Under the pieces are notes generated by a model. It was given only the letters and a program-made list of their open reading frames with translations, was not told where the DNA came from and searched no databases. From positions 861,533-896,166 of the forward strand of contig NJBG01000001.1 in assembly GCA_005222965.1 (NCBI GenBank): a DNA stretch of 34,634 nt, given 5' to 3'. This document shows positions 2,451-34,634 of the stretch, one piece after another. Position numbers and translations under genes: made by a program. This DNA comes from Candidatus Woesearchaeota archaeon B3_Woes. Lineage in GTDB: Archaea > Nanobdellota > Nanobdellia > Woesearchaeales > B3-WOES. Every line of letters starts with the position of its first letter. Within the stretch, counting starts at the first letter, position 1.

Positions 2451-3600
2451 TATTATTGTTTTCCCAAGCCTCTTTAACAGCTTTAGATACTTTAGGAACA
2501 ATTTCCTTATTAGTAGCATAAGGCAATATTTCATCTGGTGTTGGATTTTCAATAACAGAAGCCAATGCTTTTGCAGCAGCTAACTTCATATCTTCAGTTA
2601 TCCTCTTAGCTCTTGCATCTAAAGCTCCTCTAAAAACTCCTGGAAATCCTAAAACATTATTAACCTGGTTTGGAAAATCACTTCTTCCAGTTGCAATAAC
2701 CTTTGCTCCTGCCTCTTTTGCATCATCAGGCATTATCTCTGGGTCAGGATTTGCCATTGCCATAACAATAGAATCTTTTGCCATTGAAGAAACCATCTCT
2801 TTACTAACCAAACCCTTAACAGAAACACCAATAAAAACATCAGATCCTTTAATTGCATCTGCTAAAGAACCTTTTATTTTTTCTTTATTTGTTAATAAAG
2901 CAATTTCTTCTTTATGTTTGTTTAAATCCCCTCTTTCTTCATATAAAATTCCTTTAGAATCACACAAAATAATATTAGTAGCACCATAATTCAATAACAT
3001 CTTAGCTACTGCAATTCCAGCAGCACCAGCACCACTAAAAACAATCTTAACTTCTTCAATTTTCTTATTAACAACTTTCAAAGCATTAATCAATCCAGCC
3101 AAAGAAACAATTGCTGTTCCATGCTGATCATCATGCATAACTGGAATTCCTAAATTCTGTAATTGAGCTTCAATTTCAAAACATTCAGGAGCTTTGAAAT
3201 CCTCTAGATTAATTCCCCCAAAAACAGGAGCAATATTTCTTATTGTCTCTATATTCTTCTGAACATCTTGTGATTCTAAACAAATAGGAAAAGCATCAAT
3301 ATTTCCAAACTCCTTGAATAAAATTGCTTTACCTTCCATAACAGGCAAAGCAGCCTCTGCACCTATATTTCCTAATCCCAAAACAGCACTTCCATCAGAA
3401 ATAACAGCAACAGAATTTCCTTTAAATGTATATTTGTAAACATCCTCTTTGTTTTTAGCAATATATCTACATGGCTCAGCAACACCAGGCGTATAAGCCA
3501 AAGACATATCTTTCTTATTCTTTAAAGGTAATTTAGATTTAATCTCTAATTTGCCTTTTAGTCTCTCATGTATTTCCAAAGATTCTTCTTGTATATTCAT
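2446..3600 (-). CDS. mae: NAD(P)-dependent malic enzyme (minimal, unfused)
   Basis: LAYTPGVAEPC, DGSAVLGLGNIG, LPVMEGKA, GGINLED, HDDQHGTAIV, GAGAAG, ANPDPEI, TGRSDFPNQVNNVLGFPG. Confidence 0.96.
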   Translation of the reverse strand: MNIQEESLEIHERLKGKLEIKSKLPLKNKKDMSLAYTPGVAEPCRYIAKNKEDVYKYTFKGNSVAVISDGSAVLGLGNIGAEAALPVMEGKAILFKEFGNIDAFPICLESQDVQKNIETIRNIAPVFGGINLEDFKAPECFEIEAQLQNLGIPVMHDDQHGTAIVSLAGLINALKVVNKKIEEVKIVFSGAGAAGIAVAKMLLNYGATNIILCDSKGILYEERGDLNKHKEEIALLTNKEKIKGSLADAIKGSDVFIGVSVKGLVSKEMVSSMAKDSIVMAMANPDPEIMPDDAKEAGAKVIATGRSDFPNQVNNVLGFPGVFRGALDARAKRITEDMKLAAAKALASVIENPTPDEILPYATNKEIVPKVSKAVKEAWENNNI

Positions 3601-4541
3601 TTTAGTGTTGTTATAGGTCTAGATTGAAGAATATAAATCTTATCATCTATAGCCCATTCAATATCCTGTGGATGTTTATAGTGTTGTTCAATCTTTAAAC
3701 CAATTTTAGTTAATTCTTTTAATTCTTTTTCAGATAAAACCCTTTCAGTAGGATTTTCAATAGATCTTTTTTCAACACCACCCTCTTTTTTCATAAATAT
3801 TCCCATTGATTTGTTGCTAATATTCTTTTCTTTTAGCTTTTCTGTGTTCTTATCAATTAAATAATAATCAGGAGTTACTTGCCCTGATACAACAGATTCT
3901 CCTAATCCAAATGATCCTTCAATTATGATTTCTTCTTTTGAATTTGTAACAACATTTGCAGTAAACAAAACCCCTGCCTTTTTACTGTCAACCATCTTTT
4001 GTACAACTACTGCAATCAAAACTTCATCATGCTTGAATTTATTAATATCTCTGTAATAAATTGCTCTTGAAGTAAATAATGATGCCCAGCATTTTTGTAC
4101 AGAATTAAGCAAATCTTCTTCTTTAACACTAAGATAAGTATCTTGCTGGCCTGCAAAAGAAGCTTCTGGTAAATCCTCTGCTGTTGCAGATGACCTAACA
4201 GCTACGAAACCTCTTAGATTTTTGTAATTTTCCATAATATCTTTTTTAATATCTTCAGGCATGTCTTCTACCATTATTATTGATCTTATTTCTTCAGAAG
4301 CCTTGTCCAGTTTTTCAGTATCTTCAATATCAACAATATCTAAAATATCCATAATTTTCTTTTTAATTGATTCTAAGAACTTCTCAAAAGCATAAGCACT
4401 AACCACAAATCCATCTGGAATTGGTGTAATACTAAATAATTCACCTAAAGAAGCTCCTTTTCCACCTACTAAAGGAATATCAGTTATAGAAACATCCTTA
4501 AACCATAAAATGTTTTTTTTATCAAAAGTCCCTTCTTCCAT
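3597..4541 (-). CDS. Stand-alone PEP synthase/dikinase N-terminal ATP-grasp domain protein
   Basis: VGGKGASLGEL, AVRSSATAEDLPEASFAGQQDTYL, CWASLF, GLGESVVSG, PQDIEWA. Ends exactly at the domain boundary (ILQSRPITTLK*) with an ATGA overlap into malic enzyme. No His domain and no pyruvate domain. Confidence 0.93.
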   Translation of the reverse strand: MEEGTFDKKNILWFKDVSITDIPLVGGKGASLGELFSITPIPDGFVVSAYAFEKFLESIKKKIMDILDIVDIEDTEKLDKASEEIRSIIMVEDMPEDIKKDIMENYKNLRGFVAVRSSATAEDLPEASFAGQQDTYLSVKEEDLLNSVQKCWASLFTSRAIYYRDINKFKHDEVLIAVVVQKMVDSKKAGVLFTANVVTNSKEEIIIEGSFGLGESVVSGQVTPDYYLIDKNTEKLKEKNISNKSMGIFMKKEGGVEKRSIENPTERVLSEKELKELTKIGLKIEQHYKHPQDIEWAIDDKIYILQSRPITTLK

Positions 4542-4560
4542 TCATTTGAGAAGATTTTAA

Positions 4561-5847
4561 TCATTTATTAATCTTTCTCACAATCCCTTTGTTTGCATCA
4601 ACTTCTACAAGATCATTATCTTTGAAAAACCCAGTTGCGTTATTTGCACCAACAATACAAGGAATCTTAAATTCTCTTGCGAAAATTGCTGTGTGACATA
4701 ACATACCTCCAATCTCAACAACCATTGCTTTTGTTTTACGCAGATAAGGTTCATACTGAACTAATGTTTCTGCTGCAACTAATATATTACCCTCTTTAAT
4801 TTTCTTGATATCTTCAAAACCCTTTACTACTTTAACTCTTCCTTTAACAATCCCAGGACAAGCAGGTCTCCCTTTTACAATATCTTTTTGCTCTTTTACT
4901 AATATAAACTCCCTTTTATATCTTTCAAACTCTTTTATAGTAAGATGCCTTATAACACCATCTTCTTTTATAACTCCTCTATGAGTAAATCTTGAATCTA
5001 AATTTTTTGGTATTTTTTTAGAAATCAAAGCATCATCCAATTCAAATGGTAAAAACACATCCCAATATTTTTCAGCTACTTTTATCCTTCTAAATATTTC
5101 AGAATAAAGGGGAAACATCCAATAAAAAGCATAATTATAAGCATCAATACGCTCAAATCTGAACCACATCAACTTTTGCATCTCTTTTACATACTCATTC
5201 TTACTGACTTTTATGATGATGGTTTTCTTAGCACTTTTCTTAATCTCTTTTAAATCATCTATAGTTAAGGGCTGGCCTCTTGTAAGATTCATATTATACC
5301 AAGCATACTCTTTTTCTAATTCTTTTATACTTTTTTTACTTTCTAATAAATCATCATTCATTCTTCCTGCAGAAACTCTTCGTATCGGTCTAATCTCATC
5401 AAATTTAATGTTTGGCACCTTTTTAATAATATCTTCTTCAACAATATCCCCAACAAAAAGTAGTGGAAAAAGAAAAGGAATACACACCCTTACTTTCTCT
5501 TCAAATTTCTCTTTTTCTTTTAATAATTCTTCATCACTAAGGTTTTTAAAATCATCATTTTTATGTTTATCAGCATACTGTTTTAAATCATTCATTCTTT
5601 TTAAACATTTTTTATTAAATTTTTTTAAGAATTTTTGAGGATTTTTTTTAATAAAATTCCCATATTTTTTATTATCTTTAACAGGGAAAAAAGACACATC
5701 ATTTACTGTAATCAAATCTCTTGATTCATAATCTAACCCCATGGCTTTTTTATGATATTCTTTATCTTCTCCTCTAAAATAAAGCCCATTAAAATATTCT
5801 CCATTAGGCCAACAGCCTTTTTTAATAAAATCTTTTGGATTAAACAT
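4561..5847 (-). CDS. Phospho-His swivel-domain protein, paralog 1
   Basis: C-terminal GGMLCHTAIFAREFKIPCIVG...LVEVDANKG, preceded by a divergent N-terminal region. Confidence 0.9.
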   Translation of the reverse strand: MFNPKDFIKKGCWPNGEYFNGLYFRGEDKEYHKKAMGLDYESRDLITVNDVSFFPVKDNKKYGNFIKKNPQKFLKKFNKKCLKRMNDLKQYADKHKNDDFKNLSDEELLKEKEKFEEKVRVCIPFLFPLLFVGDIVEEDIIKKVPNIKFDEIRPIRRVSAGRMNDDLLESKKSIKELEKEYAWYNMNLTRGQPLTIDDLKEIKKSAKKTIIIKVSKNEYVKEMQKLMWFRFERIDAYNYAFYWMFPLYSEIFRRIKVAEKYWDVFLPFELDDALISKKIPKNLDSRFTHRGVIKEDGVIRHLTIKEFERYKREFILVKEQKDIVKGRPACPGIVKGRVKVVKGFEDIKKIKEGNILVAAETLVQYEPYLRKTKAMVVEIGGMLCHTAIFAREFKIPCIVGANNATGFFKDNDLVEVDANKGIVRKINK

Positions 5848-7294
5848 TTTTTATAACCATAACAACTCCTTTATTTGCATCAACTTCAACATAATCTCCA
5901 TCTTTCAGAATTTTTGTAGCATTATCTGCACCAACAATACACGGAATCTTAAATTCCCTTGAAATTACTGCTGCATGTGAACAAATTCCACCTTCTACAG
6001 TAACAATTGCTCCTGCCTTCTCTATAATTGGCACCATTATTGGAGAGGTCATTGTTGTAACTAAAATTTCTCCTTTTTTAAATTTCTTAGTATCTTTAAT
6101 AAATTGCTTTAAATCTCTAACATTAACAATCTTGACTTTTCCTTTAACTTTTCCCATATTAGCAACTGTTCCTTTTATTTCTTTGTCTAGTTCTTCTTCA
6201 TCAAATTTAAGAAGTTTTTCTATGTATTTTTGCCCTTCTTCTCCTGAATAACGATACAACTTTCCATTAATGTTATGAAATATAAGACATTTCTTATGAT
6301 CTTCAATCTGTTTCTTAGTAAGTTTAGTTTTATTATCCAACAAATTATATATATCTTTGAAAGTATAAACTTTCATGAATTCTTTTAAATCCATATCAAC
6401 TCTTTTAGCCAAATCTTCTAATAAATGTAAACACATATATTCAGCTCCATTCCAAACATGCTTAAGCCTATATCTATCAAGAGCTACTCTTTGTAATCGC
6501 CTTGCTAATTGTTCAAGTTCATCACTCTTAAACAAATTATATATCTCTTGATGTTTTTTAGAAATTGAATCAAGATTCTCTTTTATTCTTCTTATTTCCA
6601 AATCTATTTCTTTATCACTTTTTTTATCTTCTATTTTATTTTTTAGAAATTCCATAATCTCTTTAAAATCATAAGTATTAACAAATAACGCAGGGTATTT
6701 TCTTGAGTATTCTATTAAATCTACTTCTGAATACTTTCTTTTCATTAATTCTAAGAAATCAATCCTCTCTTTCATTGTTTCATCCATCTCTTCTGGAGTC
6801 ATTAATGATATGAAAAAATCTTCCAAAATAGATTTGTCTTTGATCTTTTTTCTAAGAATCTCCTTTATCCTTTCTTCTATTGTATGGGTTGAAAATGAAG
6901 ATGAAACTGCAAAATATAAAAGACCCAATCTAACAAAGTTTTCATATTTCTTTACTATCTGTTTCAATTTAAGATTAGATAATTTAGATAGGTCCTTTTC
7001 CCTTATCCCCTCACAAAATATAAAAAAATTCTTTACATGACAATCTATCTGTTTGAATACCATTTGAGAAAATTCTTTATTTATGTATTTTTTACCTAAT
7101 CCTTCTAAACCTTTGATAGCATCTTCTGGCATATGATGTTCAAATACTCCATCATGTATTATAAACAAGGTTTCACTAACCTCAGAAGGAATCTCATTGC
7201 CATTTTCGCCTATAGTACTACATAATTGAGAAAGCATAGATTCAGTAAGCATGACAGATAATTTTCCTCCCCACATAAAAATATACTTTTTCAT
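5840..7294 (-). CDS. Phospho-His swivel-domain protein, paralog 2
   Basis: GGICSHAAVISREFKIPCIVG...VEVDANKG. 8-nt overlap with paralog 1. Confidence 0.9.
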   Translation of the reverse strand: MKKYIFMWGGKLSVMLTESMLSQLCSTIGENGNEIPSEVSETLFIIHDGVFEHHMPEDAIKGLEGLGKKYINKEFSQMVFKQIDCHVKNFFIFCEGIREKDLSKLSNLKLKQIVKKYENFVRLGLLYFAVSSSFSTHTIEERIKEILRKKIKDKSILEDFFISLMTPEEMDETMKERIDFLELMKRKYSEVDLIEYSRKYPALFVNTYDFKEIMEFLKNKIEDKKSDKEIDLEIRRIKENLDSISKKHQEIYNLFKSDELEQLARRLQRVALDRYRLKHVWNGAEYMCLHLLEDLAKRVDMDLKEFMKVYTFKDIYNLLDNKTKLTKKQIEDHKKCLIFHNINGKLYRYSGEEGQKYIEKLLKFDEEELDKEIKGTVANMGKVKGKVKIVNVRDLKQFIKDTKKFKKGEILVTTMTSPIMVPIIEKAGAIVTVEGGICSHAAVISREFKIPCIVGADNATKILKDGDYVEVDANKGVVMVIKNV

Positions 7295-7297
7295 TAA

Positions 7298-7352: not shown

Positions 7353-7970
7353 TTAAACTCCTAAAAGCTCATTAATTTTTTGAGGAACTTTCACTACTAT
7401 TTCTTCTATACTTCCTTGATATGCTTCTTTGCTTAATCCAAACGCATTAGAAATACCAAGAGGTTCAATAACCTTGGGTCTATACTCAGATTCACCATAG
7501 ATTCTATCAACTGCTTGATGATTAGAGTCAGCCATTGGGTATACTCCTAATGTATCAGGTCTTGCTATTGTTTGATCTTGTGTTTGTTTAATTTCTCCTT
7601 TTATACCTAACAAAGGTAAAATTTCAGAACGATATTGGTGTTCTTCTCTTACAAAAATACCTGAAGCTCTCTCATAAAAACCTTTTAAAGTATCTAACGC
7701 ACCTTTATCTACATCAGCTATAACATCACTAAGCAACTCATTTTCATCATAAGAATACATGCCTCTATCTTGTGCTATACCAATAACATGAAGCATAAAA
7801 TCAGTTGAAACCTCCCCTCTATTGATTGCATCTACATGAGAACCGCTTGATATGGCGTTATATTCATCTGCACCAATCTGTTTTAAATAATTACTAGCTA
7901 TAAGAGCTGCAACAGGTGATCTACCATGATTTGCAGTACATACAAACTCTATTTTATTTTGTTCTACCAT
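7353..7970 (-). CDS. Low-molecular-weight protein-tyrosine-phosphatase/ArsC-fold protein
   Basis: N-terminal P-loop FVCTANHGRSPVA (CX5RS), then SSG. GAGGT SD upstream. Confidence 0.8.
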   Translation of the reverse strand: MVEQNKIEFVCTANHGRSPVAALIASNYLKQIGADEYNAISSGSHVDAINRGEVSTDFMLHVIGIAQDRGMYSYDENELLSDVIADVDKGALDTLKGFYERASGIFVREEHQYRSEILPLLGIKGEIKQTQDQTIARPDTLGVYPMADSNHQAVDRIYGESEYRPKVIEPLGISNAFGLSKEAYQGSIEEIVVKVPQKINELLGV

Positions 7971-7980
7971 TTTTACCTCT

Positions 7981-8781
7981 TTATGCAGCTATTTTATAAG
8001 CAATATCTTTTTCAATTCTTCTTAAATCACTTAAATTATAACCTTTAACTTCTTCTTTAACATTAAGGTCCATTGATGGGTTTTCTGAATCTAAATTATA
8101 AATATTTCCTGTAAACATCTCGCCCATTCTTACAGCCTTATAATCATCATCAACTTCTACAATCTCTTTTATTGGATCAATCCCTAAACATTCTAAGGCT
8201 ATCATTGCTAAACCATCTATATTAGGCGCATGAGTAAAATGTGCTAATAAACTCTGTTCATGGCCTCTGTTTTGTTGAAGATATTCTATTCCATCAGCTA
8301 TTGATTTTATAAACTGACGTGTCCATTCACCCATAAATGGCAATCCTTCTTCTTGAGGTTTAAAAAAATGATCTCTATAAAGGTTTCTTACAAATTCATC
8401 TTGATTCACTTCATAATGCGGAATAATTTTTTGGTGATTCATATTTGCTCCATCATATCCCATCCCAATCTCTTTTCTTTGATCAATCTCTCTACCATTC
8501 AATAAATTAGCATCTTCTGTAAAATATAAAGCAGATTGTAATGCCCTTATATAATCAGAAGTCATAAATAAGGCACTATCAAATGGAGTATCTCCTAGAA
8601 CCTCTCTACCTTTTTCTCTTAATTCTTGTGCACCCTCTGGTGTTATGTATATAAAAGCTTTATCTTCAGGACTAGCTGGAGATGGTCTTGGAATGCCTCC
8701 CTCTCCTATATTTAAACCATGTTGTCCACTAAACTTTTTTCCATGCCTTGACACTATAATTTTTCCATCTTGTGAATCCAT
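7981..8781 (-). CDS. Histidine phosphatase superfamily protein
   Basis: SRHG motif near the N-terminus, TSDYIRALQSA, and a second His in FTHAPNI. Confidence 0.8.
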   Translation of the reverse strand: MDSQDGKIIVSRHGKKFSGQHGLNIGEGGIPRPSPASPEDKAFIYITPEGAQELREKGREVLGDTPFDSALFMTSDYIRALQSALYFTEDANLLNGREIDQRKEIGMGYDGANMNHQKIIPHYEVNQDEFVRNLYRDHFFKPQEEGLPFMGEWTRQFIKSIADGIEYLQQNRGHEQSLLAHFTHAPNIDGLAMIALECLGIDPIKEIVEVDDDYKAVRMGEMFTGNIYNLDSENPSMDLNVKEEVKGYNLSDLRRIEKDIAYKIAA

Positions 8782-8858: not shown

Positions 8859-10226
8859 CTAGTTAATCTTCTTAACAACACCTTTATCAGCATCAACCTC
8901 TACTAAATCATTATCTTTTAAAACATTTGTAGCAACTTTTGTGCCTATCACACAAGGAATGTTATATTCTCTACTAACAATTGCAGCATGACTTGTAATA
9001 CCGCCTTCATCTGTAATAACTGCTGCTGATATTATCATCTTTGGTGTAAAGTTTGGAAAAGTATACTTAGCAACAAATATATCCCCTTTTTTTATCTTTT
9101 TCAAATGATCAGAATGAGTTATTATTTTTACCCTTCCTTTTACTTTTCCTTTACACGCAGTCATACCTTCTAATGTTGTAATATTCTTTAGTTCTCCTTG
9201 AAGTCTGTCAAGTGTTTTATTAATTTCCCTCATATCATACATCATATCAACCATTCCTTTTTGAAAATAATATAATGCCTTGTTTGCACCCCTCAATTTT
9301 AACTCTTTTTTATCAGGGAATTTTCCCTTTTCCAAAACCCCCTTGGTTTCTTTCATTGTCAGATTTGTTACATCTTTTAGTGTTAATCCTTTTTCTAATG
9401 TAGTTAAATACCTAAAAAAACCTTTTAGATGGAATGTTGCTCTTTTCCATACATCAATACGTTCTGTTTTCATAAAAGCATAAGTATGAACAATTTCTGT
9501 TTTTAATCTCAATTTTTTATCTTTAATAGATTTCAAAAACTCTGAAAATTCTTTTTTAACTTCTTTGAATCTCTTGAATTGCTCTTCAATCTCTTCTTTA
9601 CTTATATTCTTTCTTTGACGCTCAAAGTATTCTTCTGTATACTCCTTATCATAACCACTATATATCTTAAGCCAACCCCACTTCTTTACAAGCTCTTTTG
9701 GAGAAAGTCTATGCAAGGCTCTTTGCATATTAATAAAGTCAATTGGTTTATCAAGCGCCATTACTAATTCTATTTTATCAGGAAAATTTTTCAGAACATC
9801 TTTTTCAGTAAAATGAATAACGGCCCACGCACTCCAAATATATTCACTATAATCACAAGATTCATCAACATAATCTAAGTAGTTCTTAAGAATTATTTTT
9901 TTATTATTTGTTTTTGTTGATTTAGATAATTTAATTGCTTTTTGAATTAATCTTTTTTTCCTTTTATCATAACTTAAAAAGTGTTTTTTCCAGTTCTTTT
10001 CCATATATCTTGCAAGTCTGGAAAGAGTCTCAAGTGATGATTTTTCCTCAATATAATAATCATAGATATTCTTATTTGGCATATCTATAAATCCTTTACA
10101 ACCACGATTAACCAACCACCAAATCCATGGTTCATCTCTTGAAATACACGTTTCTCTAGCAGCAAATCTAAAATAAGGGCTTTTTATTGCAATTTTTTTA
10201 ACATTATTAATTTTATATGGTTTCAT
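8859..10226 (-). CDS. Phospho-His swivel-domain protein, paralog 3
   Basis: TDEGGITSHAAIVSREYNIPCVIGTK...LVEVDADKG. Confidence 0.9.
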   Translation of the reverse strand: MKPYKINNVKKIAIKSPYFRFAARETCISRDEPWIWWLVNRGCKGFIDMPNKNIYDYYIEEKSSLETLSRLARYMEKNWKKHFLSYDKRKKRLIQKAIKLSKSTKTNNKKIILKNYLDYVDESCDYSEYIWSAWAVIHFTEKDVLKNFPDKIELVMALDKPIDFINMQRALHRLSPKELVKKWGWLKIYSGYDKEYTEEYFERQRKNISKEEIEEQFKRFKEVKKEFSEFLKSIKDKKLRLKTEIVHTYAFMKTERIDVWKRATFHLKGFFRYLTTLEKGLTLKDVTNLTMKETKGVLEKGKFPDKKELKLRGANKALYYFQKGMVDMMYDMREINKTLDRLQGELKNITTLEGMTACKGKVKGRVKIITHSDHLKKIKKGDIFVAKYTFPNFTPKMIISAAVITDEGGITSHAAIVSREYNIPCVIGTKVATNVLKDNDLVEVDADKGVVKKIN

Positions 10227-11680
10227 ATTTTCCTAACAACCCCTTTGTTTGCATCAACTTCTACCAAATCACCATCTTTAAAAACCTTGGTAGCTATCTT
10301 AGTACCAATTACACATGGCTTTTTCATTTCTCTGGAAACAACAGCCGCATGTGATGTAATACCTCCTTCATCTGTAACAATCGCACCACACTTACTCATA
10401 ACAATAACTAAATCAGGATTAGTTTCTTTACAAACAAGAACATTTCCTTTATCAACATTATCAATTTCTCTAGCATCAAAAACAATTCTAACCTTTCCTT
10501 TCACTTTCCCAGGGTAAGCACACATTCCATTAACTTTATTATAATCTAAAATTTTTTCTTTAGAACATTCCATCTTAATGATTTTTTGTGCTTCTTCTCC
10601 TTCATATTGATTATAAGAATTATTTAAAACCAAAATAACAAAACTATCTTTTCTAACTTTACCATTTTCTATAAATAATTTCTTATTTTTAATTAAAGCT
10701 TCAGATATTTCAATAGGAGTATAAAATTTAAGTATGGATAATGGTAATCCGACACGCTTTCCAATCTCTTTTAAAAGAGGAAATGCTTCATAAAAAGCCA
10801 AACTAAATATATTTGCTCGATACAATCGAACAAAAGCAGTTGCTCCAAGCAAATTAATAAGAATTTTAGTTTCTTCATCAAGTTGATTCATAAGATGTCT
10901 TTTCTCTTTTTCTCTTATTTTATGACATTCCTCTAATTCTTCTTTACGCTTGCGATAATCATAAAAATCCTTTAAATAACTTCTAAAAAGATTTAGAAAA
11001 AAATCAATATTCCAGACTTCTTTCTCAAAATTAAGAGGGATCCAGCAATATTTTTTAACATGCTTTTGTATTTTATTATGAATTTCAGGGAATTTTTTTA
11101 ACTCATCTTTAACCACCTTAACATCATTCAAAAAGAGATTCTTATATTTCAATTCAATCTCTTCAATAATCTCTAAGCGTTCTAATTCTTCTTTTGCTTC
11201 TAAACTCAATTCATCAGGAGAAGTTAAAATACCTAAATGTTGCGTATCCGTCAATTTTAGGAGTACGCTCTTCTGAATTTCTTCAAGAGGCATAATAATA
11301 GTCTCTCCTAACCGCGAATACTCTTTGCAAAACTGTTTAAACAAATCATTAATCTCCTGGTTTGTCAAATTATTATCGACTTTTTTTGAAATAGTCTTAA
11401 TATTATTAACAACATTATCACATATATTTTTACTTAGTTTTTTATATTGTTCAGCAAAATGTTTATCTTTAAGGCTTTTTCTTTTGACAACTTCACTAAA
11501 CTCATGTAGTTCAGAATATAAATAATGTATTCCTGTCTCACCTTTATCCCATGTCCAAAGCTGATTATGAACCCCTTTCCATTCTGGAAGTATAAAACTT
11601 GGTCCTTTCCGAATTCCTTCAATAACTAAATACTTAAGAAGAACATTGGCATCTCGTGTCAATAATCTTTTCCATTTCAT
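10223..11680 (-). CDS. Phospho-His swivel-domain protein, paralog 4 (start revised to 11680, 485 aa)
   Basis: TDEGGITSHAAVVSREMKKPCVIGTK. The ATG at 11680 (MKWKR) overlaps the TGA of the upstream remnant as ATGA, the same coupling used elsewhere in the array. Confidence 0.88.
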   Translation of the reverse strand: MKWKRLLTRDANVLLKYLVIEGIRKGPSFILPEWKGVHNQLWTWDKGETGIHYLYSELHEFSEVVKRKSLKDKHFAEQYKKLSKNICDNVVNNIKTISKKVDNNLTNQEINDLFKQFCKEYSRLGETIIMPLEEIQKSVLLKLTDTQHLGILTSPDELSLEAKEELERLEIIEEIELKYKNLFLNDVKVVKDELKKFPEIHNKIQKHVKKYCWIPLNFEKEVWNIDFFLNLFRSYLKDFYDYRKRKEELEECHKIREKEKRHLMNQLDEETKILINLLGATAFVRLYRANIFSLAFYEAFPLLKEIGKRVGLPLSILKFYTPIEISEALIKNKKLFIENGKVRKDSFVILVLNNSYNQYEGEEAQKIIKMECSKEKILDYNKVNGMCAYPGKVKGKVRIVFDAREIDNVDKGNVLVCKETNPDLVIVMSKCGAIVTDEGGITSHAAVVSREMKKPCVIGTKIATKVFKDGDLVEVDANKGVVRKI

Positions 11681-11729
11681 CTTATTTTTCTTACAACACC
11701 TTATTAGCATCTACTTCTACTAAATCATC
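11677..11729 (-). pseudogene. 3'-end remnant of a lost 13th swivel-domain paralog
   Basis: Reads GAT GAT TTA GTA GAA GTA GAT GCT AAT AAG (G)GT GTT GTA AGA AAA ATA AGA TGA = DDLVEVDANK-G-VVRKIR* with a 1-nt deletion. 11706-11727 is identical to 30487-30508 and 31911-31932. Confidence 0.85.
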
Positions 11730-14175: not shown

Positions 14176-14260
14176 CTTAGTCTACCATTAAAACTCTAAT
14201 AAGGTAATATTTCTTCCCTTATCTATAAATCTTTTTAATTTTTTCTTATATAATATAAAT
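14174..14260 (-). repeat. Diverged direct-repeat copy of the HAD gene 3' end (partner at 16378-16461)
   Basis: 14188-14259 translates on the minus strand to FILYKKKLKRFIDKGRNITLLEF*, versus FVLYKKKIKRFIDKKDITLLRF* at 16392-16460. ATCTTAGTCT is shared at 14174-14183 and 16378-16387. Confidence 0.85.
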
Positions 14261-14261
14261 A

Positions 14262-14269
14262 TTTATATA
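14262..14269 (+). promoter_or_regulatory. Putative TATA box for the acyltransferase/acyl-CoA ligase pair
   Basis: TTTATATA 22 nt upstream of the ATG at 14292, with no SD (leaderless spacing). Confidence 0.5.
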
Positions 14270-14825: not shown

Positions 14826-14827
14826 AA

Positions 14828-26449: not shown

Positions 26450-27945
26450 TTTACTATCTTAACCCAACTATGGTTGGCATTAACCTCTACTAAGTCTCCA
26501 TCCTTTAAAACTTTTGTGGCTATCTTAGTACCAATTATGCATGGGATTCCTAATTCCCTTGAAACAATTGCAGCATGGCATGTAACTCCACCTTCATCTG
26601 TAACAATTGCTGATGCTTTTTTCATAGCAGGAATATAATCTGGTCTTGTCATTACAGCCACAATAATATCTCCTTTTTCAACCTTATTTATCTCTGTAGC
26701 ACTCTTCAAAATCTTAACCTTTCCAGTTGCTTTGCCCATTGAAGCTGTTAAGCCTCTAAAATCATCAACATCAGACAAATCAGTACTTCCTAGTATCTCA
26801 TTTTTAACATCATCAGCATCTTTACCATGTAAAGCCTCATGACCCTCTTTATCCCAGTAAAAAACACTATTATTTTTTCTTCCCTTTAATTCTTCTCTTG
26901 TAGGTTTTTTATTAAATATATTACCAACCTCTCTAGGACTCATATACTTAATTTCATCTAAAGGAATATCAACTCTTTTACCTATCTCATCTAATATCAA
27001 ACTAAAATAGTGTGTTGTCCAGAATGTTGCTTTTTTCCTTTCATCCTGCCAGTATGTAAAATCTTCAGAAATTTTTATCAAAACCTTTAGTTCATCACTA
27101 ATATTTAATAAATTCATAAGATCTTCTTTCTTTTTCCTATTTACCTTAGGAGTATCTTTAATTCTTTTTACTTCTTCTTCAATATTAAGATTAAGAGAAA
27201 AGATTTTATCTAATTCTTTTTCAAAGTGTTTAACATCCAAAACATAAGAATCAACGTAATTATTTCTTGTCCAAAAGAAATTCTTTTGATGTTCTTCTAA
27301 AAGTTTTGTTTTATCTCCACCTTTTTTAACATTTAATGCTACTTCTAAAAGCTCAACCTCTGCATCATTAATAAAAGACAGATGAACAGGAGCTGTTAAT
27401 GTTGAAAAAACATCTGTAAATCTTTTTTCATCCTTGATTTTAGAACTTTCATAAACCTCTTTTATTTTATCAGCAATCATTTCATCTGTTCCTAGAGCAA
27501 AACCATCAATAAGAGAGCTTGAACTGTTTCTATTCAAAGTAATTTGTGAAAATTCATTAGATAATTTTATTAATTCTTCATCACTTAACTTAGTTAGATC
27601 TATTTTACTAACTTCAATACACTTTTTATAGAATAAATCATTATCTCTTTCCCATTCTTCAATAAAATATGAACTAATATCCTGAATTTTTTTACTTTCA
27701 TTAATTATAGAAGTATAGACCTTTTCTATATCATCCATACAAATATACCAATCAGCCTTCCCTTCATCATAAAAACAGTAGTGAACACTAAAATCTCCAC
27801 CAAGCTTTCTTTTTTCATGAGTTTCTATTTCAGCTTCAGCAATAAAATGCATAAAACAAGGAGAACCATCAAATCTTTGGTGATACCATTTCTTTCCAAC
27901 CCAATCTTTTACTTTTCCCTTAGCATATCCTTCTATATACTTCAT
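26446..27945 (-). CDS. Phospho-His swivel-domain protein, paralog 7
   Basis: MTRPDY...TDEGGVTCHAAIVSRELGIPCIIGTK. Confidence 0.9.
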   Translation of the reverse strand: MKYIEGYAKGKVKDWVGKKWYHQRFDGSPCFMHFIAEAEIETHEKRKLGGDFSVHYCFYDEGKADWYICMDDIEKVYTSIINESKKIQDISSYFIEEWERDNDLFYKKCIEVSKIDLTKLSDEELIKLSNEFSQITLNRNSSSSLIDGFALGTDEMIADKIKEVYESSKIKDEKRFTDVFSTLTAPVHLSFINDAEVELLEVALNVKKGGDKTKLLEEHQKNFFWTRNNYVDSYVLDVKHFEKELDKIFSLNLNIEEEVKRIKDTPKVNRKKKEDLMNLLNISDELKVLIKISEDFTYWQDERKKATFWTTHYFSLILDEIGKRVDIPLDEIKYMSPREVGNIFNKKPTREELKGRKNNSVFYWDKEGHEALHGKDADDVKNEILGSTDLSDVDDFRGLTASMGKATGKVKILKSATEINKVEKGDIIVAVMTRPDYIPAMKKASAIVTDEGGVTCHAAIVSRELGIPCIIGTKIATKVLKDGDLVEVNANHSWVKIVK

Positions 27946-28976
27946 TTTAACTTTCTTACAATACCTTTATTTGCATCAACTTCAATTAAATCGCCGTCTT
28001 TTAAAACCTTTGTTGCAATCTTTGTACCTATGATACATGGTTTTTTCATCTCTCTGGAAATTATCGCTGCATGGGTTGTTTGTCCTCCTTCATTGGTTAC
28101 AATTGCCGAACATCTTCCAAGTATTGGAACATATAACACATTAGTCATGGATGCTACTATGACATCTCCTTTTTTGACCTTTGAAAAATCTTCTTTTGTC
28201 AACACTATCTTTGCTTCTCCTTTCGCAAATCCTTTGTTTGCAATAGTCCCTTTTAACTCTTTTGCCTCTGAATATGATTCTTCTTCAAATATCTCTTTCA
28301 TCTTTGCAAGCGCTTCATCACCTAACAGATATTTCTTTGTTTTCAAAGTGTAGAAATGGGCTTGATGTCTTTTCTTGACAATATCCATGTCTATTTCTTT
28401 ACACTGCAACAGATTTTTTATTTCTTCTAGAGACATTGATTCTACTAGTTCTTCTTTCAGATATTTTTTGAATTCTTTTGACAAGAACTCCCATAAGTCC
28501 ACCCAGTAAGATTTACTCTTGTATTTTGTGATGGTGCTTTTATAGTCTGGATGGTGATCTAGGAATTCATCATCCAATGAATAGCCAATAAATGCACATG
28601 ATATATAATACTTCCAGTATTCAGGCAAAATTTTCTGGATTTTCTCTATTATCGCAATAAGCTCTATTTTATTTGTTGGTTTGCTGCGTATTATACTACT
28701 TATTTGTTTGTCAGATTTTCCCACAATCTTGAACAGCGCCAAATATTTTGAAGGATTATTCCTAACTTTTTTCTTGACATTTTTTTTCAACAGATCAAAC
28801 TCTTCTTTGTTTCTGTAAAGTTCATTCACATTCTTTTTTGTGAAAAAGAATTTATCATCTATATCTTCTCCTAATAGTTCCATTAAGTTGGAGTATCCTA
28901 CTTCAATGCATTTATCATATACATAAAAAGCTATTTCTCTTGAGATATATTCATAATCATTTAGTTTTCTTTTCAT
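27942..28976 (-). CDS. Phospho-His swivel-domain protein, paralog 8 (short form)
   Basis: TNEGGQTTHAAIISREMKKPCIIGTK. 344 aa. Confidence 0.88.
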   Translation of the reverse strand: MKRKLNDYEYISREIAFYVYDKCIEVGYSNLMELLGEDIDDKFFFTKKNVNELYRNKEEFDLLKKNVKKKVRNNPSKYLALFKIVGKSDKQISSIIRSKPTNKIELIAIIEKIQKILPEYWKYYISCAFIGYSLDDEFLDHHPDYKSTITKYKSKSYWVDLWEFLSKEFKKYLKEELVESMSLEEIKNLLQCKEIDMDIVKKRHQAHFYTLKTKKYLLGDEALAKMKEIFEEESYSEAKELKGTIANKGFAKGEAKIVLTKEDFSKVKKGDVIVASMTNVLYVPILGRCSAIVTNEGGQTTHAAIISREMKKPCIIGTKIATKVLKDGDLIEVDANKGIVRKLK

Positions 28977-30460
28977 TTAATCTTCCTCACAATACCATGG
29001 TTAGCATTTACTTCAATTAAATCGCCATCTTTTAAAATTTTTGTGGCTATTTTAGTACCAATTACACATGGGATTCCTAATTCACGAGAAACAATAGCTG
29101 CATGACTAGTAATCCCACCTTCATCTGTTACAATAGCAACAGCCTTTTTCATAGCAGGAACACACTCAGGTCTTGTCATTGTTACAACCAACACCTCTCC
29201 TTTTTGAAATTTAGCCAAATCATCTTTTGTTTTACAAATCCTTACTATACCACTAACTTTGCCAGTAGATGCACACATTCCATGGATATCAGATTGAGCA
29301 GCTAAACTTTTATGATAACAATCCATAAACTTCTTAAAATCATCTTTTATATAGAATTCAGAAACTAATTTACCATCTTTCCTCTTCATATAAACTGCAT
29401 AATGTTTTATCCTTTCTTTACTCTCTTCCATATTAAAATTAGTTAACATTTTATAATCAATTTCATCAGGAGAATATCTTTTTAGAATATCTAAGGGAAT
29501 ATCAAACTTTTCACTAATCTCTTTCAATAATATATGCATGTAGTAAACACAACTCAACATATTCTTTTTCCTGTCATCCTGCCAATGAAGAACTTTTATC
29601 GAAAGATCAATCAAATCTATAATTTTACTATCAAAATTAAATTTTTGAATCAATTCTTTTCTTTTATTAATATTATTCTTATACCTTTGATTTTCCTCTT
29701 TTATCTGCTTATCAACATCAATATTATCTTTAATCATATTTTTTATTTCTTTTAGGTAATCTTCTTCTCTTAAACCATCACCATCAAAATAATTTAATTG
29801 GTTATAGAAATATTCCTTTCTATGAAATGATATTAATCCTAAAACATCTTCACCATTTTCCATCATCTTTATAATTTTCATTAAATCCAGATGTTCTTCA
29901 TTCATAAAAGAAGGTCGTTCAGGTTGTAATAAATCATTAAAAATTTCCCTGAATTTCTTATCATGCCTGTTAAGATTTAGTGATTTTTCCAACATTTCTT
30001 TTAACAAAGGCTCAACAACAAAAGGTATTGCTTCTACTAAATGACTCACACTTAGAAGTCTGTGGTAGGTTCCCCAAAATTTCTTATAAATATTAAGTAA
30101 ATCTTTATTATTAAGATTTTTAATATCTCCTTCATCTATCTCTAACATAATTTTTTGAGAATCTTTTACAAAAACATCATCTTTTTTTAATAAATCCTTT
30201 AAATAATTCTTATCTTTTTCATATCTCTTAAGAAAATTATTTCCAACATCTACTAAATCCTGTTCAAGATAACAATATTCTAAATAATCTTTGTTAAAAA
30301 TAAATAATTTTTCAGTATACCCATAACCAAGAACTTTGTGACAATCAACCATCGATGATACAGGACCATGAAAAATATAATTTAGACAGCTGTTAAATCC
30401 CTGTACATACCATTTCTTTTTAGCAATTTCCTGAAACCTTTTAGATAAATCTTCTTTCAT
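28973..30460 (-). CDS. Phospho-His swivel-domain protein, paralog 9
   Basis: TDEGGITSHAAIVSRELGIPCVIGTK. Confidence 0.9.
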   Translation of the reverse strand: MKEDLSKRFQEIAKKKWYVQGFNSCLNYIFHGPVSSMVDCHKVLGYGYTEKLFIFNKDYLEYCYLEQDLVDVGNNFLKRYEKDKNYLKDLLKKDDVFVKDSQKIMLEIDEGDIKNLNNKDLLNIYKKFWGTYHRLLSVSHLVEAIPFVVEPLLKEMLEKSLNLNRHDKKFREIFNDLLQPERPSFMNEEHLDLMKIIKMMENGEDVLGLISFHRKEYFYNQLNYFDGDGLREEDYLKEIKNMIKDNIDVDKQIKEENQRYKNNINKRKELIQKFNFDSKIIDLIDLSIKVLHWQDDRKKNMLSCVYYMHILLKEISEKFDIPLDILKRYSPDEIDYKMLTNFNMEESKERIKHYAVYMKRKDGKLVSEFYIKDDFKKFMDCYHKSLAAQSDIHGMCASTGKVSGIVRICKTKDDLAKFQKGEVLVVTMTRPECVPAMKKAVAIVTDEGGITSHAAIVSRELGIPCVIGTKIATKILKDGDLIEVNANHGIVRKIK

Positions 30461-31884
30461 TCTATCTTCCTAACAATACCATGATCAGCATCTACTTCTA
30501 CTAAATCACCATCCTTTAAAACCTTTGTAGCTACTTGAGTTCCAATAATACAAGGCTTACCTAACTCTCTAGAAACAATTGCAGCATGACTAGTAATCCC
30601 CCCTTCATTTGTGATTATAGCTGCTGCTTTTTTCATAATAGGAACAAATTCAGGTCTAGTCATATATGATACAAGTATATCTCCTTCTTCCATTTTTGAA
30701 AACTCATCTTGTTTCATAATAATCTTTACTCTTCCCTTAACAATTCCTTTATTTGCAATCTGCCCTTTTAGTTCTTTAAACTCCTGTTTAATCCTATCAT
30801 CATAAACCTTTTTTATTTCTTCAGCTTCATCACCATAAAAATATGCAGGATCATCTTTTCTGGAAAACAATGCACTTACCTTATGACCAATCTTTTTTAA
30901 TTCTTCCTCAGATATTGTAAATAATTTATCAGATTTGTTTATGAAAGGCAATTGTTCATAAAGTCTCCAATCAATATTCTTTCTTCTTGCTATTTCTTCT
31001 ACAAACCATCTTAATATAGCATCCCCTTTACAGTTTATTCTCTTCCTTACATCTCTCCTATGACCCAATGAAGACATTAACTTAAAGAATTTCAACACGT
31101 TTTTGGGCATATCATGATTTTCATAGATTTCTCTTTTCTTATTTGAAAGGTCTGAAAGCTTTTTTTCTATCTCTTTAAGATTCTTTTCAGGATCTTTTAT
31201 TTTTTCAAGTTTTTCTTTAAAATGCGATACGGGTTGTGTGTCTGCATGACCATAATTGTTCTTATACCAAAAAAATTTCTTTTGATGCCTCTCAAGACCT
31301 TCTTCAGAAAAATTGATTTTAAGCTTTAATAAAGATATTTCTTCTTCCTGTGCAAAAGAAGGAACATCAGGCATTAAAAGAGTCTTCACTTCATCATCTG
31401 TAAGCTTATTATTATACTCTTCATTTAGAAGATGGTTTATTATTTCCTCCCAATAAAGATCAAAAGAATCTATAAATATAAATGGTTTCCACGCTTCATC
31501 AAAACAATCGCAGAACTCTTCAAATACTTTTTTTAGTTCATCATCTGATAGAGATTTCAAATCAGGAAGACTATCAATAGCTTTATCAAGGTCTTTTTCA
31601 AGTTTATCATGGAGCTTTTCAAGTTTGTCTAAGAAAGAATCATCACTATTATTTTTATCTAAAATATATTTATACATCTTTTCAAGAGCGCCTTTATCCA
31701 AACCCATACAAAAATTGCCATCCTCTTCTATGATAATTAAATGTTCATATCCTTTTTCATGCATACTGAGGACACTTCTAACTGCTGTATATACAGGAAA
31801 AGAAATGTAAAATGGTTTTCCCTCTCCTCCCTGATCATACCATTCAGTTTCTTGAATTATTTTTTTAAAATCTTCTTTATTCAT
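30457..31884 (-). CDS. Phospho-His swivel-domain protein, paralog 10
   Basis: TNEGGITSHAAIVSRELGKPCIIGT. Confidence 0.9.
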   Translation of the reverse strand: MNKEDFKKIIQETEWYDQGGEGKPFYISFPVYTAVRSVLSMHEKGYEHLIIIEEDGNFCMGLDKGALEKMYKYILDKNNSDDSFLDKLEKLHDKLEKDLDKAIDSLPDLKSLSDDELKKVFEEFCDCFDEAWKPFIFIDSFDLYWEEIINHLLNEEYNNKLTDDEVKTLLMPDVPSFAQEEEISLLKLKINFSEEGLERHQKKFFWYKNNYGHADTQPVSHFKEKLEKIKDPEKNLKEIEKKLSDLSNKKREIYENHDMPKNVLKFFKLMSSLGHRRDVRKRINCKGDAILRWFVEEIARRKNIDWRLYEQLPFINKSDKLFTISEEELKKIGHKVSALFSRKDDPAYFYGDEAEEIKKVYDDRIKQEFKELKGQIANKGIVKGRVKIIMKQDEFSKMEEGDILVSYMTRPEFVPIMKKAAAIITNEGGITSHAAIVSRELGKPCIIGTQVATKVLKDGDLVEVDADHGIVRKIE

Positions 31885-33362
31885 TTTAACTTCCTAACAA
31901 CACCTTTCTCAGCATCTACTTCTACTAAATCACCATCTTTTAAAACTTTCAGAGCAATATTTGTACCAGTAACACAAGGTTTTCCTAACTCCCTTGAAAC
32001 AATAGCAGCATGGGATGTAATTCCACCATCGCTTGTAACAATTGCTGCTGCCTTTTTCATTAATCCAACATATTCTGGTCTTGTCATACCAGTAACTAAT
32101 ACATCTCCTTTTTTAAATTTTGAGAATTCTTCAACTGTATTCACAATTCTGACTTTACCAGTAGCTTTACCAGGAGAAGCACAAACACCCTTTATCTCAG
32201 AAATTTTATCAGGATCCTTCAAGCTCACAACTTTATCAAAATAATATTTTACTTTTTCTCCGTATATAGCCTCTAATTTATTCAAAGTATGAATAAGCAG
32301 AAAAGGTTTTTTTCTCTTTTCAACTTCAATAAGAAATTTTTCCTTATCTTTAACAAATTCTTCAACCTCTTTTATATCAAATAACATAATATCTTTAACA
32401 TCTAATTCATATCTTCTAGAAAACTCTTTTGCAAATCTTGTTTCATAATAAATAAACTTCAGAGCATTCTCTTTCCTTAATTCCTGCCAATAAGAAACAA
32501 ATACACTTAAATCTGATAAAGACCTTATTGTATTACTAAATCTATATTTATCCAATAACTCTTTCCTTATTTTTTTATTCTCTTTAGATAATTGTCTTTT
32601 CTTTTTCTCTAATTCATCTAAATCTTCTTTTAATAATTCTTTTATACCCTCAATCACCATACCAACAGAGTATCTATAACCATACCCCCAGTTCCCTTTA
32701 GCATAAAAATATTTATTAATATGCTTCTTAACAATATCTAATCTAACAAACTCTTCAGGATTATCTAATAAATCACTTCCTTTTATTTTTTTAGCTATAT
32801 CTATAAGCTCAATCTCAAAAAAATTCAAAAAAGAAGCCTTTTCAGGAGAAGTCAATGTAGAATATATTTTAGAAACATCTTTAATCTTTTCTTTTTTACA
32901 ATAATCTTCTAATTCTTTAATCATTCTCCTCTCTGAACTAAACATGATAGGGTCCATCATCATAGAAATTCGTCTTGATCTAATCAACTGTTGCCATATC
33001 CTATTGTGTTTATCCCATAATTCTTCTTCTGTTAATGATTTTAGATCAATTTTCATTAATTCATTAAACATTTGCTGATATTTAGCAGATTCCTTTTCAA
33101 ATTCAGAAAACCATCTATCAAACTCTTCTTTATTATTCATATAAACAGATAATATCTCTTCAAATAATCTATCCTGATCCTCAACTAAAGTGCACCACTT
33201 TGTTTCCCCATTTTTGTAAAAGTTTAATACAAACTTATATTGGTTTTTTAAAAAAGTAATTCCATCTGCCATGGCATGTGCAGCAAGACATATAAGCAAA
33301 GGACTAGCTTCTGCATGTTCTTCATACCACCCCTTATCAAAATTCTCTTCAATTAAACTCAT
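31881..33362 (-). CDS. Phospho-His swivel-domain protein, paralog 11
   Basis: TSDGGITSHAAIVSRELGKPCVTGT. Confidence 0.9.
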   Translation of the reverse strand: MSLIEENFDKGWYEEHAEASPLLICLAAHAMADGITFLKNQYKFVLNFYKNGETKWCTLVEDQDRLFEEILSVYMNNKEEFDRWFSEFEKESAKYQQMFNELMKIDLKSLTEEELWDKHNRIWQQLIRSRRISMMMDPIMFSSERRMIKELEDYCKKEKIKDVSKIYSTLTSPEKASFLNFFEIELIDIAKKIKGSDLLDNPEEFVRLDIVKKHINKYFYAKGNWGYGYRYSVGMVIEGIKELLKEDLDELEKKKRQLSKENKKIRKELLDKYRFSNTIRSLSDLSVFVSYWQELRKENALKFIYYETRFAKEFSRRYELDVKDIMLFDIKEVEEFVKDKEKFLIEVEKRKKPFLLIHTLNKLEAIYGEKVKYYFDKVVSLKDPDKISEIKGVCASPGKATGKVRIVNTVEEFSKFKKGDVLVTGMTRPEYVGLMKKAAAIVTSDGGITSHAAIVSRELGKPCVTGTNIALKVLKDGDLVEVDAEKGVVRKLK

Positions 33363-34634
33363 TTTATTTTCCTAACAACTCCTTCATCAGTGTCTACTTC
33401 TATTAATTCACCATTCTTTAATGCTTTTGTGGCAATTTTTGTGCCAACAATACAAGGAATTCCTAATTCCCTAGAAACAATAGCAGCATGTGAAGTCATA
33501 CCACCTTCATCTGTTATTATTGCTGAAGCCTTTCTCATAGCAATAACATAATCAGGAGAAGTCATTGGCGCAACTAATATTTCACCTTTCTCCATTCTAT
33601 CAATATGTTTAGGACTAAGAAGAATTCTTACCTTTCCTTTAACAACATTCTGTTTACCTTTACTAACAACCAACCCTTTAAACTCTTTTAAATTTTTATC
33701 AACATGAACCTCAAGATAAGGTTTAACAAGATCATTTGCTTTTTTACCAGCTAAATAATCTACATTTTTATTTTCATTATAATACATCATAAAACCTTTA
33801 TAACGTGATTTAGCATCTATCCTCTTATCATTTTCTAACAATTCAATAATTTCATAACCGCAATAATAACAAATTTCTTTAAATGAAATCTTTTTCCTTT
33901 TAGAAATCTCTTTCATAAAACAACTTATAATATGATTAGCTATAAAGATAAACTGCTTTCTAAAATCCTGCCACCAGACACAATAAGCAAGCTTTTTTGC
34001 TATATGAACAGTTTCATCATTAACATTATATTTTTTGATAATGGCTTTTTTCTTTTGTAATATTTTATCAACATAATTATTGATTTCATTAATTTTATTC
34101 TTAGCATCCTGCTTTGAAATTTTATCAAGCTCTTTCTTAAAGAAATTAACATCCAAAACCTTTGTAAAACCATAACTATTTCTTAACCAATAATATTTTT
34201 GCTGATGTTCTTTTAATTTCTCTTTATTATCTGATAATTTTATCTTCATAAATGCTAATTCTTCAGTCTGAAAAAAAGAAAGATTTTCAGGAGCACTAAG
34301 AGCTTCAAAAATTTCAATAAAATTAAACTTATCAAAATCTAATATCTTATTTTTTAATAATCTCTCTCCTCCCCAGTTGCTTAGCTCAGGCAGAATTCCA
34401 GTTAACCAAAAATTAAGATGCCCTTTTTCCCATTCAACAAAAAGATTTCTTAATTCACTATAGCTTAAATCAGAAAGACCTTTATTAACCCTAGCTTCAA
34501 ATTCTCTAAACTTATCTACACTAACCATCCAATCATCAAAAGCTTTTCTAAGAATTTTATCATCCAGAACATGTTTAACAAATAGTTTTTCTCCACTATC
34601 TCTTAGCTTTTCATAGTCTGCAATAAAAACAACC
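33359..34634 (-). CDS. Phospho-His swivel-domain protein, paralog 12 (5'-truncated by the window)
   Basis: TDEGGMTSHAAIVSRELGIPCIVGTK. The frame stays open past the Met at 34528 to the window edge (VVFIADYEKLRDSGEKLFVKHVLDDKILRKAFDDW-MVSV). Confidence 0.9.
   Translation of the reverse strand, partial: VVFIADYEKLRDSGEKLFVKHVLDDKILRKAFDDWMVSVDKFREFEARVNKGLSDLSYSELRNLFVEWEKGHLNFWLTGILPELSNWGGERLLKNKILDFDKFNFIEIFEALSAPENLSFFQTEELAFMKIKLSDNKEKLKEHQQKYYWLRNSYGFTKVLDVNFFKKELDKISKQDAKNKINEINNYVDKILQKKKAIIKKYNVNDETVHIAKKLAYCVWWQDFRKQFIFIANHIISCFMKEISKRKKISFKEICYYCGYEIIELLENDKRIDAKSRYKGFMMYYNENKNVDYLAGKKANDLVKPYLEVHVDKNLKEFKGLVVSKGKQNVVKGKVRILLSPKHIDRMEKGEILVAPMTSPDYVIAMRKASAIITDEGGMTSHAAIVSRELGIPCIVGTKIATKALKNGELIEVDTDEGVVRKIK

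Follow-up and report, generated by a model that had tools for sequence, protein, structure and literature searches.

A 34,634 nt stretch of the genome of Candidatus Woesearchaeota archaeon B3_Woes (contig NJBG01000001.1, positions 861,533 to 896,166; hereafter the window) contains a gene array that probably encodes a split dikinase system of the rifampin phosphotransferase (RPH) type, similar to HpeHI and PpsAB but with one ATP-grasp subunit serving many acceptor modules. We base this one-to-many architecture on the RPH-type fold predicted for the modules, the intact ATP-site residues of the ATP-grasp subunit, the co-occurrence of a dedicated ATP-grasp with large module sets (38 of 40 genomes, against 0 of 35 with few modules), and natural fusions that join one ATP-grasp to between 2 and 8 modules.

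The ATP-grasp subunit and its modules

Twelve open reading frames (ORFs) in the window, all on the minus strand and 344-499 aa long, have a C-terminal PF00391 swivel domain as their sole Pfam match, and all 12 keep the catalytic histidine within the motif GGxxxHx[A/S]xxxRE. We refer to these modules by their first coordinate. Identity among them is 39-66% in the swivel and 19-29% in the N-terminal region. The 17 PF00391 matches in the genome (1.02 Mb, 96% complete) comprise 15 modules (12 in the window, a 13th directly upstream of it and two orphans elsewhere), a phosphoenolpyruvate synthase (PEPS) and a divergent 472-aa protein. Its one free ATP-grasp gene (3597-4541, PF01326 only) lies at the downstream end of the array, and the window has no PF02896 pyruvate barrel, the single match in the genome sitting inside the intact 797-aa PEPS. 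A preliminary description of the window had already claimed 12 co-oriented paralogs with the catalytic histidine, highly divergent N-terminal regions, exactly one free ATP-grasp at that end and no pyruvate-binding barrel, all of which hold, and its 'at least 12' variable subunits become 15. Modules and ATP-grasp together occupy 21.4 kb, or 2.1% of the genome; all module frames are intact, many genes overlap by 4 nt, and none of the 15 modules has a strongly hydrophobic stretch (maximum 19-residue hydropathy 0.91-1.74). The 472-aa protein (G000:C1:973826-975244, outside the window) combines a partial PPDK_N domain with a weak swivel that keeps its histidine (TSHA), and is a third dikinase-like gene, of another type.

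The 314-aa product of 3597-4541 matches PF01326 with an E-value of 1e-102 and RPH with 1e-65, and its ATP site is intact, with K28, R116, T135 and E295 corresponding to RPH K22, R117, T136 and E297. In quick IQ-TREE and FastTree trees (four of the 57 rows, two of them long branches, one a duplicate and one a contig-end fragment, being left out of the latter) it clusters with other free and fused copies, apart from the genome's own PEPS. A free ATP-grasp in genome G131 (L090:4450-5877) carries a ~200-aa insertion that is probably an intein.

An AlphaFold2 model of module 26446-27945 (pLDDT 93) has RPH as its best Foldseek match (TM 0.54), and a VIA-align comparison of the full module with RPH 5HV1 gives Z 18.1 and a root-mean-square deviation (rmsd) of 5.6 over 422 residues, spanning RPH 319-867. 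Because the swivel could drive this match, residues 1-391 were also modelled alone; RPH again ranks first (Z 11.7, rmsd 4.9 over 313 of 391 residues, RPH 320-752; next match 6.3) and fills the six top Foldseek rows. For this module, the structural comparison with RPH that the preliminary description had proposed for the N-terminal regions favours its proposal. The N-terminal part of the short module 27942 resembles Atlas models from PPDK_N-fused and Rph_4th-bearing clusters (TM 0.57-0.74), and a homolog search with it returned one relative besides itself. The remaining ten window modules align with these two in one profile family. That the modules carry an RPH-type acceptor domain is well supported by the predicted structures, most directly for 26446, where the model shows it, and with further support for 27942.

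Across 153 modules from 27 genomes, a partial sample, the catalytic histidine is invariant (153/153) and the regulatory threonine of PEPS is kept in 117. The module motif [Q/R/K]-D-x-R-K falls on RPH R666-E667-x-x-K670, of which R666, E667 and K670 are needed for the second phosphate transfer according to the available text of PMC4844700. The corresponding positions in the 153 modules hold R/K in 88, R/K/Q in 122, an acid in 85 and Lys in 88; among the window modules 7 of 12 keep both acid and Lys, four lack the acid and one is unaligned there.

A simple split PEPS, or a set of degenerate PEPS fragments, was the alternative that the preliminary description had set against its own proposal. It draws on the regulatory threonine and on the ATP-grasp and swivels, which among solved structures are closest to PEPS (archaeal PEPS 8A8E). 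We reject it as having next to no probability: the genome, 96% complete, has its only PF02896 domain within the intact PEPS outside the window, the predicted N-terminal domain has an RPH fold, and the module frames are intact with 4-nt overlaps. No PDRP/PSRP regulatory kinase (PF03618) was found in the genome.

Named homologs of the modules come mostly from Woesearchaeota and Nanoarchaeota, with some from Patescibacteria. Homologs of the 26446 class occur in Nanoarchaeota and Patescibacteria, some of them fused to an XRE helix-turn-helix (HTH) domain or to an ATP-grasp; an N-terminal XRE helix-turn-helix is frequent among 26446 homologs P0084-P0120, whose named members are Patescibacteria. In genome G148 (L111:65-1389) the swivel (102 aa) and an acceptor-like domain (340 aa) are separate small genes, and the Atlas has 247-aa clusters with the acceptor-like domain alone.

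Distribution, fusions and proposed mechanism

At least 6 swivel matches are found in 41 of 251 genomes of the order, B3_Woes included, and at least 10 in 25; the 251 take in six unpublished genomes with 1-4 swivel matches, and the top count is at least 22. Using the window ATP-grasp as query, we searched the other 40 genomes with at least 6 swivels (hereafter expanded genomes) and recovered a dedicated ATP-grasp in 38 of them, from 30 families, as 29 free copies (four judged by frame length alone) and 9 fusions. No free ATP-grasp of comparable identity and length was found in 35 low-copy genomes, where G013 has a short frame off a contig end that groups with PEPS, and G017 and G034 have distant ATP-grasps. 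In these genomes the comparison of ATP-grasp and swivel gene counts suggested by the preliminary description is favourable to its proposal. Matches to the N-terminal profile occur in 56 of 301 genomes of the phylum (unpublished G185 included), and the acceptor domain as a family comprises 5,468 clusters at 50% identity, at E-values up to 1e-10.

Natural fusions are the strongest evidence for the one-to-many layout. Single chains combine one ATP-grasp with 2 modules (G148), 3 modules (G009, and G076 as far as its contig extends) or 4 modules (G053, G253, G188), and in G150 a chain of 4,201 aa has 8 modules followed by a C-terminal ATP-grasp. Sequence P0055 joins an ATP-grasp to the 26446 class. 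A 2,815-aa chain in G008 (L015:7323-15767) has five modules and an extra N-terminal acceptor domain but no ATP-grasp; the free ATP-grasp of this genome is on another contig.

Several observations weigh against this interpretation. The genomes are related, so that co-occurrence and linkage counts are not independent and overstate independence. G105 (14 swivel matches) and G226 (10) yielded only a PEPS ATP-grasp, G071 has two dedicated ATP-grasps and G148 possibly two, and in low-copy G039 a shorter ATP-grasp occurs in two 1:1 pairs. For the acceptor domain, Foldseek E-values of the 26446 N-terminal domain are just 0.01-0.08 and a sequence profile built from the N-terminal domains does not retrieve RPH, a search of the Protein Data Bank (PDB) giving no meaningful match; the link between modules and RPH is therefore structural. 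Finally, the equivalence between the module motif and R666-E667-K670 depends on a swivel-anchored alignment, and the motif acid is present in just 85 of the 153 modules and in only 7 of 12 in the window. Loci L091 (G105), L092 (G226) and L093 (G071) encode a shorter PEPS (~750-790 aa) whose ATP-grasp is nested among the free subunits in trees, and in G105 and G226 this enzyme might serve the modules.

Complex prediction, which the preliminary description had also proposed, favours the pairing of ATP-grasp and module weakly. The pair scores 0.39 against 0.00 for the best control, with at least 74% of contacts reproduced between runs and partner pLDDT of at least 86. The mark used is passed by 116 of 157 solved pairs, as against 2 of 215 mismatched ones, although at or below 0.60 just 18 solved pairs and both mismatches reach it, so that a pass at such a level is often wrong; RPH is itself a solved look-alike for this prediction.

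In the mechanism we propose, the 314-aa ATP-grasp would bind ATP and, meeting any one of the 15 modules transiently, charge its swivel histidine with the beta-phosphate, AMP and Pi being released. Each charged swivel would then hand its phosphate to a small-molecule acceptor in the RPH-fold N-terminal domain of the same module. RPH, HpeHI and PpsAB are the models from which we infer both the dikinase chemistry and action in trans; HpeH and HpeI likewise form no stable complex, as described in the available text of PMC12167813.

The reverse direction, in which modules would gather high-energy phosphate from host-derived donors and the shared ATP-grasp would make ATP from AMP and Pi, is very unlikely in our estimation. 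In its favour, no electron transport chain exists in these lineages, where it is also unsettled which way PEPS runs (accessible text of bioRxiv 10.64898/2026.05.13.725050), and HpeH by itself is able to take phosphate off a phosphorylated substrate (PMC12167813, likewise). Against it, fifteen specificities would be hard to explain. In addition, the conversion of AMP and Pi to ATP is driven only by donors near PEP in energy, and acyl-phosphates and phosphoesters do not suffice.

Module classes and linked genes

Other genes interrupt the array, and several recur alongside it in other genomes. The features of the window are:

3597..4541, minus strand: free ATP-grasp (PPDK_N) subunit, 314 aa, PF01326 only
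4561..5847, minus: module, 428 aa, divergent, without the acid of the RPH R-E-x-x-K motif
5840..7294, minus: module, 484 aa, without motif acid
7353..7970, minus: CX5R protein resembling low-molecular-weight protein tyrosine phosphatase (LMW-PTP), Asn at the general-acid position
7981..8781, minus: histidine-phosphatase-like (RHG) protein, homologs directly adjoining system genes in 3 other genomes
8859..10226, minus: module, 455 aa, without motif acid
10223..11710, minus: module, 495 aa, without motif acid
11728..12711, minus: phosphotransacetylase-like (Pta-like) protein, module-linked subfamily
12724..14175, minus: module, 483 aa, conserved class (57% to G207)
14292..16384, plus: opposite-strand pair, single LbH acyltransferase-like (14292-14825) and acyl-CoA ligase-like (14828-16384)
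16392..17180, minus: HAD-like protein, DIDDT motif read in the sequence, no Pfam HAD match, conserved in core cassette
17177..18232, minus: alpha/beta-hydrolase (GHSSG), conserved in core cassette
18183..19280, minus: double LbH (hexapeptide) acyltransferase-like protein
19317..20759, minus: module, 480 aa, conserved class (43-44% to G127)
20756-21637 minus, 21730-22587 plus, 22593-23390 minus, 23387-24196 minus, 25601-26449 minus: five paralogous S-adenosylmethionine (SAM) methyltransferases
24244-25530, minus: Cys/Met pyridoxal phosphate (PLP) enzyme
26446..27945, minus: module, 499 aa, conserved class, modelled, predicted RPH fold
27942..28976, minus: short module, 344 aa
28973..30460, minus: module, 495 aa, conserved class (44% to G207)
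30457..31884, minus: module, 475 aa (37% to G236), R-D-x-R-K motif
31881..33362, minus: module, 493 aa
33359..34634, minus: module, 474 aa, start 149 bases past the window end, conserved single-copy class

For five window modules, counterparts in other families share 43-62% of N-terminal residues, against ~24% among the five themselves. Genome-wide searches covered the 33359 and 26446 classes, and no genome had more than one copy of either. We considered and rejected recent duplication or gene conversion, since no near-identical DNA is shared between paralogs; the C-terminal repeat families that paralogs have in common are 61-74% identical. Swivels are barely more alike within genomes (identity 0.525) than between them (0.510), and there is therefore no strong concerted evolution. 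The preliminary description had proposed a shared ATP subunit and a library of interchangeable subunits. Its architecture stands, on the predicted fold, the ATP site, the co-occurrence and the fusions, while the free diversification holds only in part, given five old classes, the single-copy state of the two searched genome-wide and fixed gene neighbours. The description of the module set as simply a DIVERSIFYING library thus needs correcting, as the sequence comparisons suggest old classes of mostly fixed specificity.

Linkage was compared between the 40 expanded genomes and 40 single-copy genomes of at least 1.1 Mb. Homologs of the double LbH acyltransferase 18183-19280 occur in 19 of 40 expanded and 0 of 40 single-copy genomes, and the same 19 genomes supply the 19 best matches to the Pta-like protein 11728-12711, though the step in E-value from rank 19 to rank 20 is small. 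The Pta-like gene shares a locus with module or ATP-grasp genes in 17 of the 19, and the order LbH, alpha/beta-hydrolase, HAD-like, Pta-like is frequent across families and is also that of the window. The 33359 class is found in 15 of the 40 expanded genomes, 13 of the 19 with the Pta-like/LbH core and 2 of the 21 others, and the 26446 class in 8 of 19 and 1 of 21. A gene set that travels with modules between distant relatives points to an undescribed pathway.

We favour a function in two layers, a conserved core pathway and accessory cassettes that trap or modify. The core would consist of module classes such as 26446 and 33359 with the Pta-like, LbH acyltransferase, alpha/beta-hydrolase and HAD-like genes, and would most likely phosphorylate, acylate and dephosphorylate one class of metabolite or envelope building block, the substrates being speculative. 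The accessory modules would trap or modify other small molecules; they commonly occur with a TrmB-type regulator and a phosphatase-like gene, of the CX5R type or another. A more specific version, which we offer tentatively as a less probable possibility, is that ultra-small archaea have in the core modules and these partners a new pathway of several steps for biosynthesis or modification. In it, several modules charged by one ATP-grasp engine, and in some genomes fused into chains of up to eight, would process one product in turn, as on an assembly line powered by the conversion of ATP to AMP. On the other side of the balance, neither tested class is universal in the 19 core genomes (8/19 and 13/19), and 104 of the 153 sampled modules lack a close counterpart; a large variable tail therefore exists.

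That tail, together with the sheer size of the family (5,468 clusters), suits a pure scavenging or detoxification library, in which each module would independently trap or inactivate its own small molecule from outside, the genes nearby being incidental. TrmB-type genes flank many cassettes, and the sub-micromolar KM of HpeHI led to a proposal of scavenging (PMC12167813, in its available text). As a complete account we find it doubtful, because single-copy classes track the Pta-like/LbH cassette (13/19 vs 2/21; 8/19 vs 1/21) and the LbH-hydrolase-HAD-Pta-like order recurs across families; it probably holds for the accessory layer only.

In the Pta-like subfamily G-R replaces S309-R310 (M. thermophila numbering), invariantly in 16 of 16 sequences, and position 316 has no conserved Asp. 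Thus 11728-12711 lacks equivalents of S309 and D316, which together with R310 are the catalytic residues of Pta. Catalytic roles of S309 and D316 are described in the available text of PMC9706017. By its sequence the protein may be a non-catalytic acyl-CoA binder or may perform other chemistry. These substitutions count against a carboxylate dikinase replacing acetate kinase, in which a module would make an acyl-phosphate, the Pta-like protein would convert it to acyl-CoA and the LbH enzymes would use the latter. Acetate kinase was not found in the B3_Woes genome, nor in 15 of 20 genomes with a module-linked Pta-like gene, against 5 of 25 with an ordinary Pta, and the 26446 class directly adjoins the Pta-like gene in G207, G169 and G061. 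Since this class was not found in 11 of the 19 genomes concerned, and only one module would be explained, we consider the replacement improbable.

The subfamily of the CX5R protein 7353-7970 is present in 12 of 40 expanded and 0 of 40 single-copy genomes. Each of the 15 loci where it occurs has a swivel gene at most 1.5 kb away, and a TrmB-like gene, identified by sequence resemblance, is present at 11 of them. Asn occupies the general-acid position in 5 of 16 CX5R proteins, the window copy among them. Such linkage could reflect a protein kinase or relay like the phosphotransferase system (PTS), with phosphate passing to TrmB-type regulators or to the CX5R cysteine, as in EIIB, and phosphatases resetting the signal. 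The EIIB and LMW-PTP folds are linked, and the XRE-HTH fusions of homologs in the candidate phyla radiation (CPR) would fit as well. We judge a relay decidedly unlikely: the characterised RPH-fold acceptor domains in the literature considered, as far as its available text goes, bind small molecules, TrmB-like genes are common local regulators at these loci, and the CX5R gene is found in just 12 of 40 expanded genomes. Among 113 ORFs adjoining system genes, some of them spurious, 14 match phosphatase families (9 HAD, 3 LMWPc, 1 His-phosphatase, 1 metallophosphoesterase), and sequence P0221 joins an ATP-grasp to a HAD domain.

The five SAM methyltransferases share an ILG[AS/C]TPE motif and have no other paralog in the genome. 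They were rejected as a general part of the system, with homologs in 4 of 40 expanded genomes and 4 of the 80 genomes searched. The module cluster of G127 also holds homologs of the PLP enzyme and of two of the methyltransferases. A family of 300-350 aa proteins without annotation recurs near the LbH/Pta-like cassette in four genomes where no counterpart of the window's hydrolase is in view (L154:3266-4237, L156:9396-10412, L157:5582-6484, L158:7664-8716). A 45-nt direct repeat (93% identical; window 14219-14263 and 16420-16464) flanks the opposite-strand LbH and acyl-CoA ligase pair, and resembles the trace left when a segment inserts into a cassette such as this one. At the downstream end, a short malic enzyme gene (2446-3600) overlaps the ATP-grasp gene by 4 nt and has no homolog at the compared loci of other genomes; in hybrid malic enzymes a Pta-like domain serves to sense acetyl-CoA. 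A B12-binding radical SAM gene (188-1504) lies on the opposite strand and has three paralogs elsewhere in the genome.

Comparison with known dikinases

The closest described systems are HpeHI (Rhodococcus), CreHI (Corynebacterium) and the phenylphosphate synthase PpsAB (Thauera), which in the available text of PMC12167813 likewise have a separate ATP-grasp subunit and a second subunit with an RPH-type acceptor domain and a C-terminal swivel histidine in the same motif. Set beside these published descriptions, the B3_Woes genes have both structural hallmarks of two-component dikinases, a stand-alone RPH-homologous ATP-grasp and an acceptor domain with a T/SxxGGxxxH swivel. The described systems are each one H/I pair acting on phenols, with HpeH of ~71 kDa and a Met at the position of the PEPS regulatory threonine, whereas here one ATP-grasp accompanies 15 modules of 343-499 aa, and Thr is kept in most sampled modules. 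The linked genes also differ from the neighbours of HpeHI, CreHI and PpsAB, and no aromatic-catabolism genes were seen among the window genes or the 113 neighbouring ORFs scanned.

RPH-Lm (PDB 5FBS, 5FBU, 5HV1; PMC4844700, available text) shares the acceptor-domain fold, the K/R/T/E residues of the ATP site and the motif at R666-E667-x-x-K670. It is one chain with one acceptor domain, whereas here the genes are split, identity is 12-17% and the catalytic Arg is often Gln. Scores against the NCBIfam RPH model NF041857 are 294 and ~62 bits, far below its cut-off of 999, and we see no reason to expect rifamycin specificity. PEPS (PF01326, PF00391 and PF02896) is closest in ATP-grasp and swivel sequence through archaeal 8A8E, but the present system has no pyruvate barrel, and the separate intact PEPS of the genome belongs to a different ATP-grasp clade. 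PigC, RedH and HapC, which condense after phosphorylation, have the same three domain types in a single chain; NCBIfam matches here are far below cut-off, and no prodiginine genes were seen.

The preliminary description knew of no one-to-many version of this architecture, and none is described in the literature that could be searched, including the available text of PMC8421398, PMC8204110 and bioRxiv 10.64898/2026.05.13.725050 (supplements and most subscription papers lay beyond the search). Database labels for the genes read 'PEP-utilizing enzyme' or 'pyruvate, water dikinase', and metabolic reconstructions of DPANN and CPR organisms can therefore easily miss or misread the system. A single cloned ATP-grasp subunit would permit screening of many acceptor domains, and the conserved linked genes narrow the hunt for substrates and for the ATP spending of host-dependent cells. 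Both the enzyme chemistry and the division into two subunits have precedents in the systems compared above; the organisation of one engine with many acceptors is new relative to the searchable literature.

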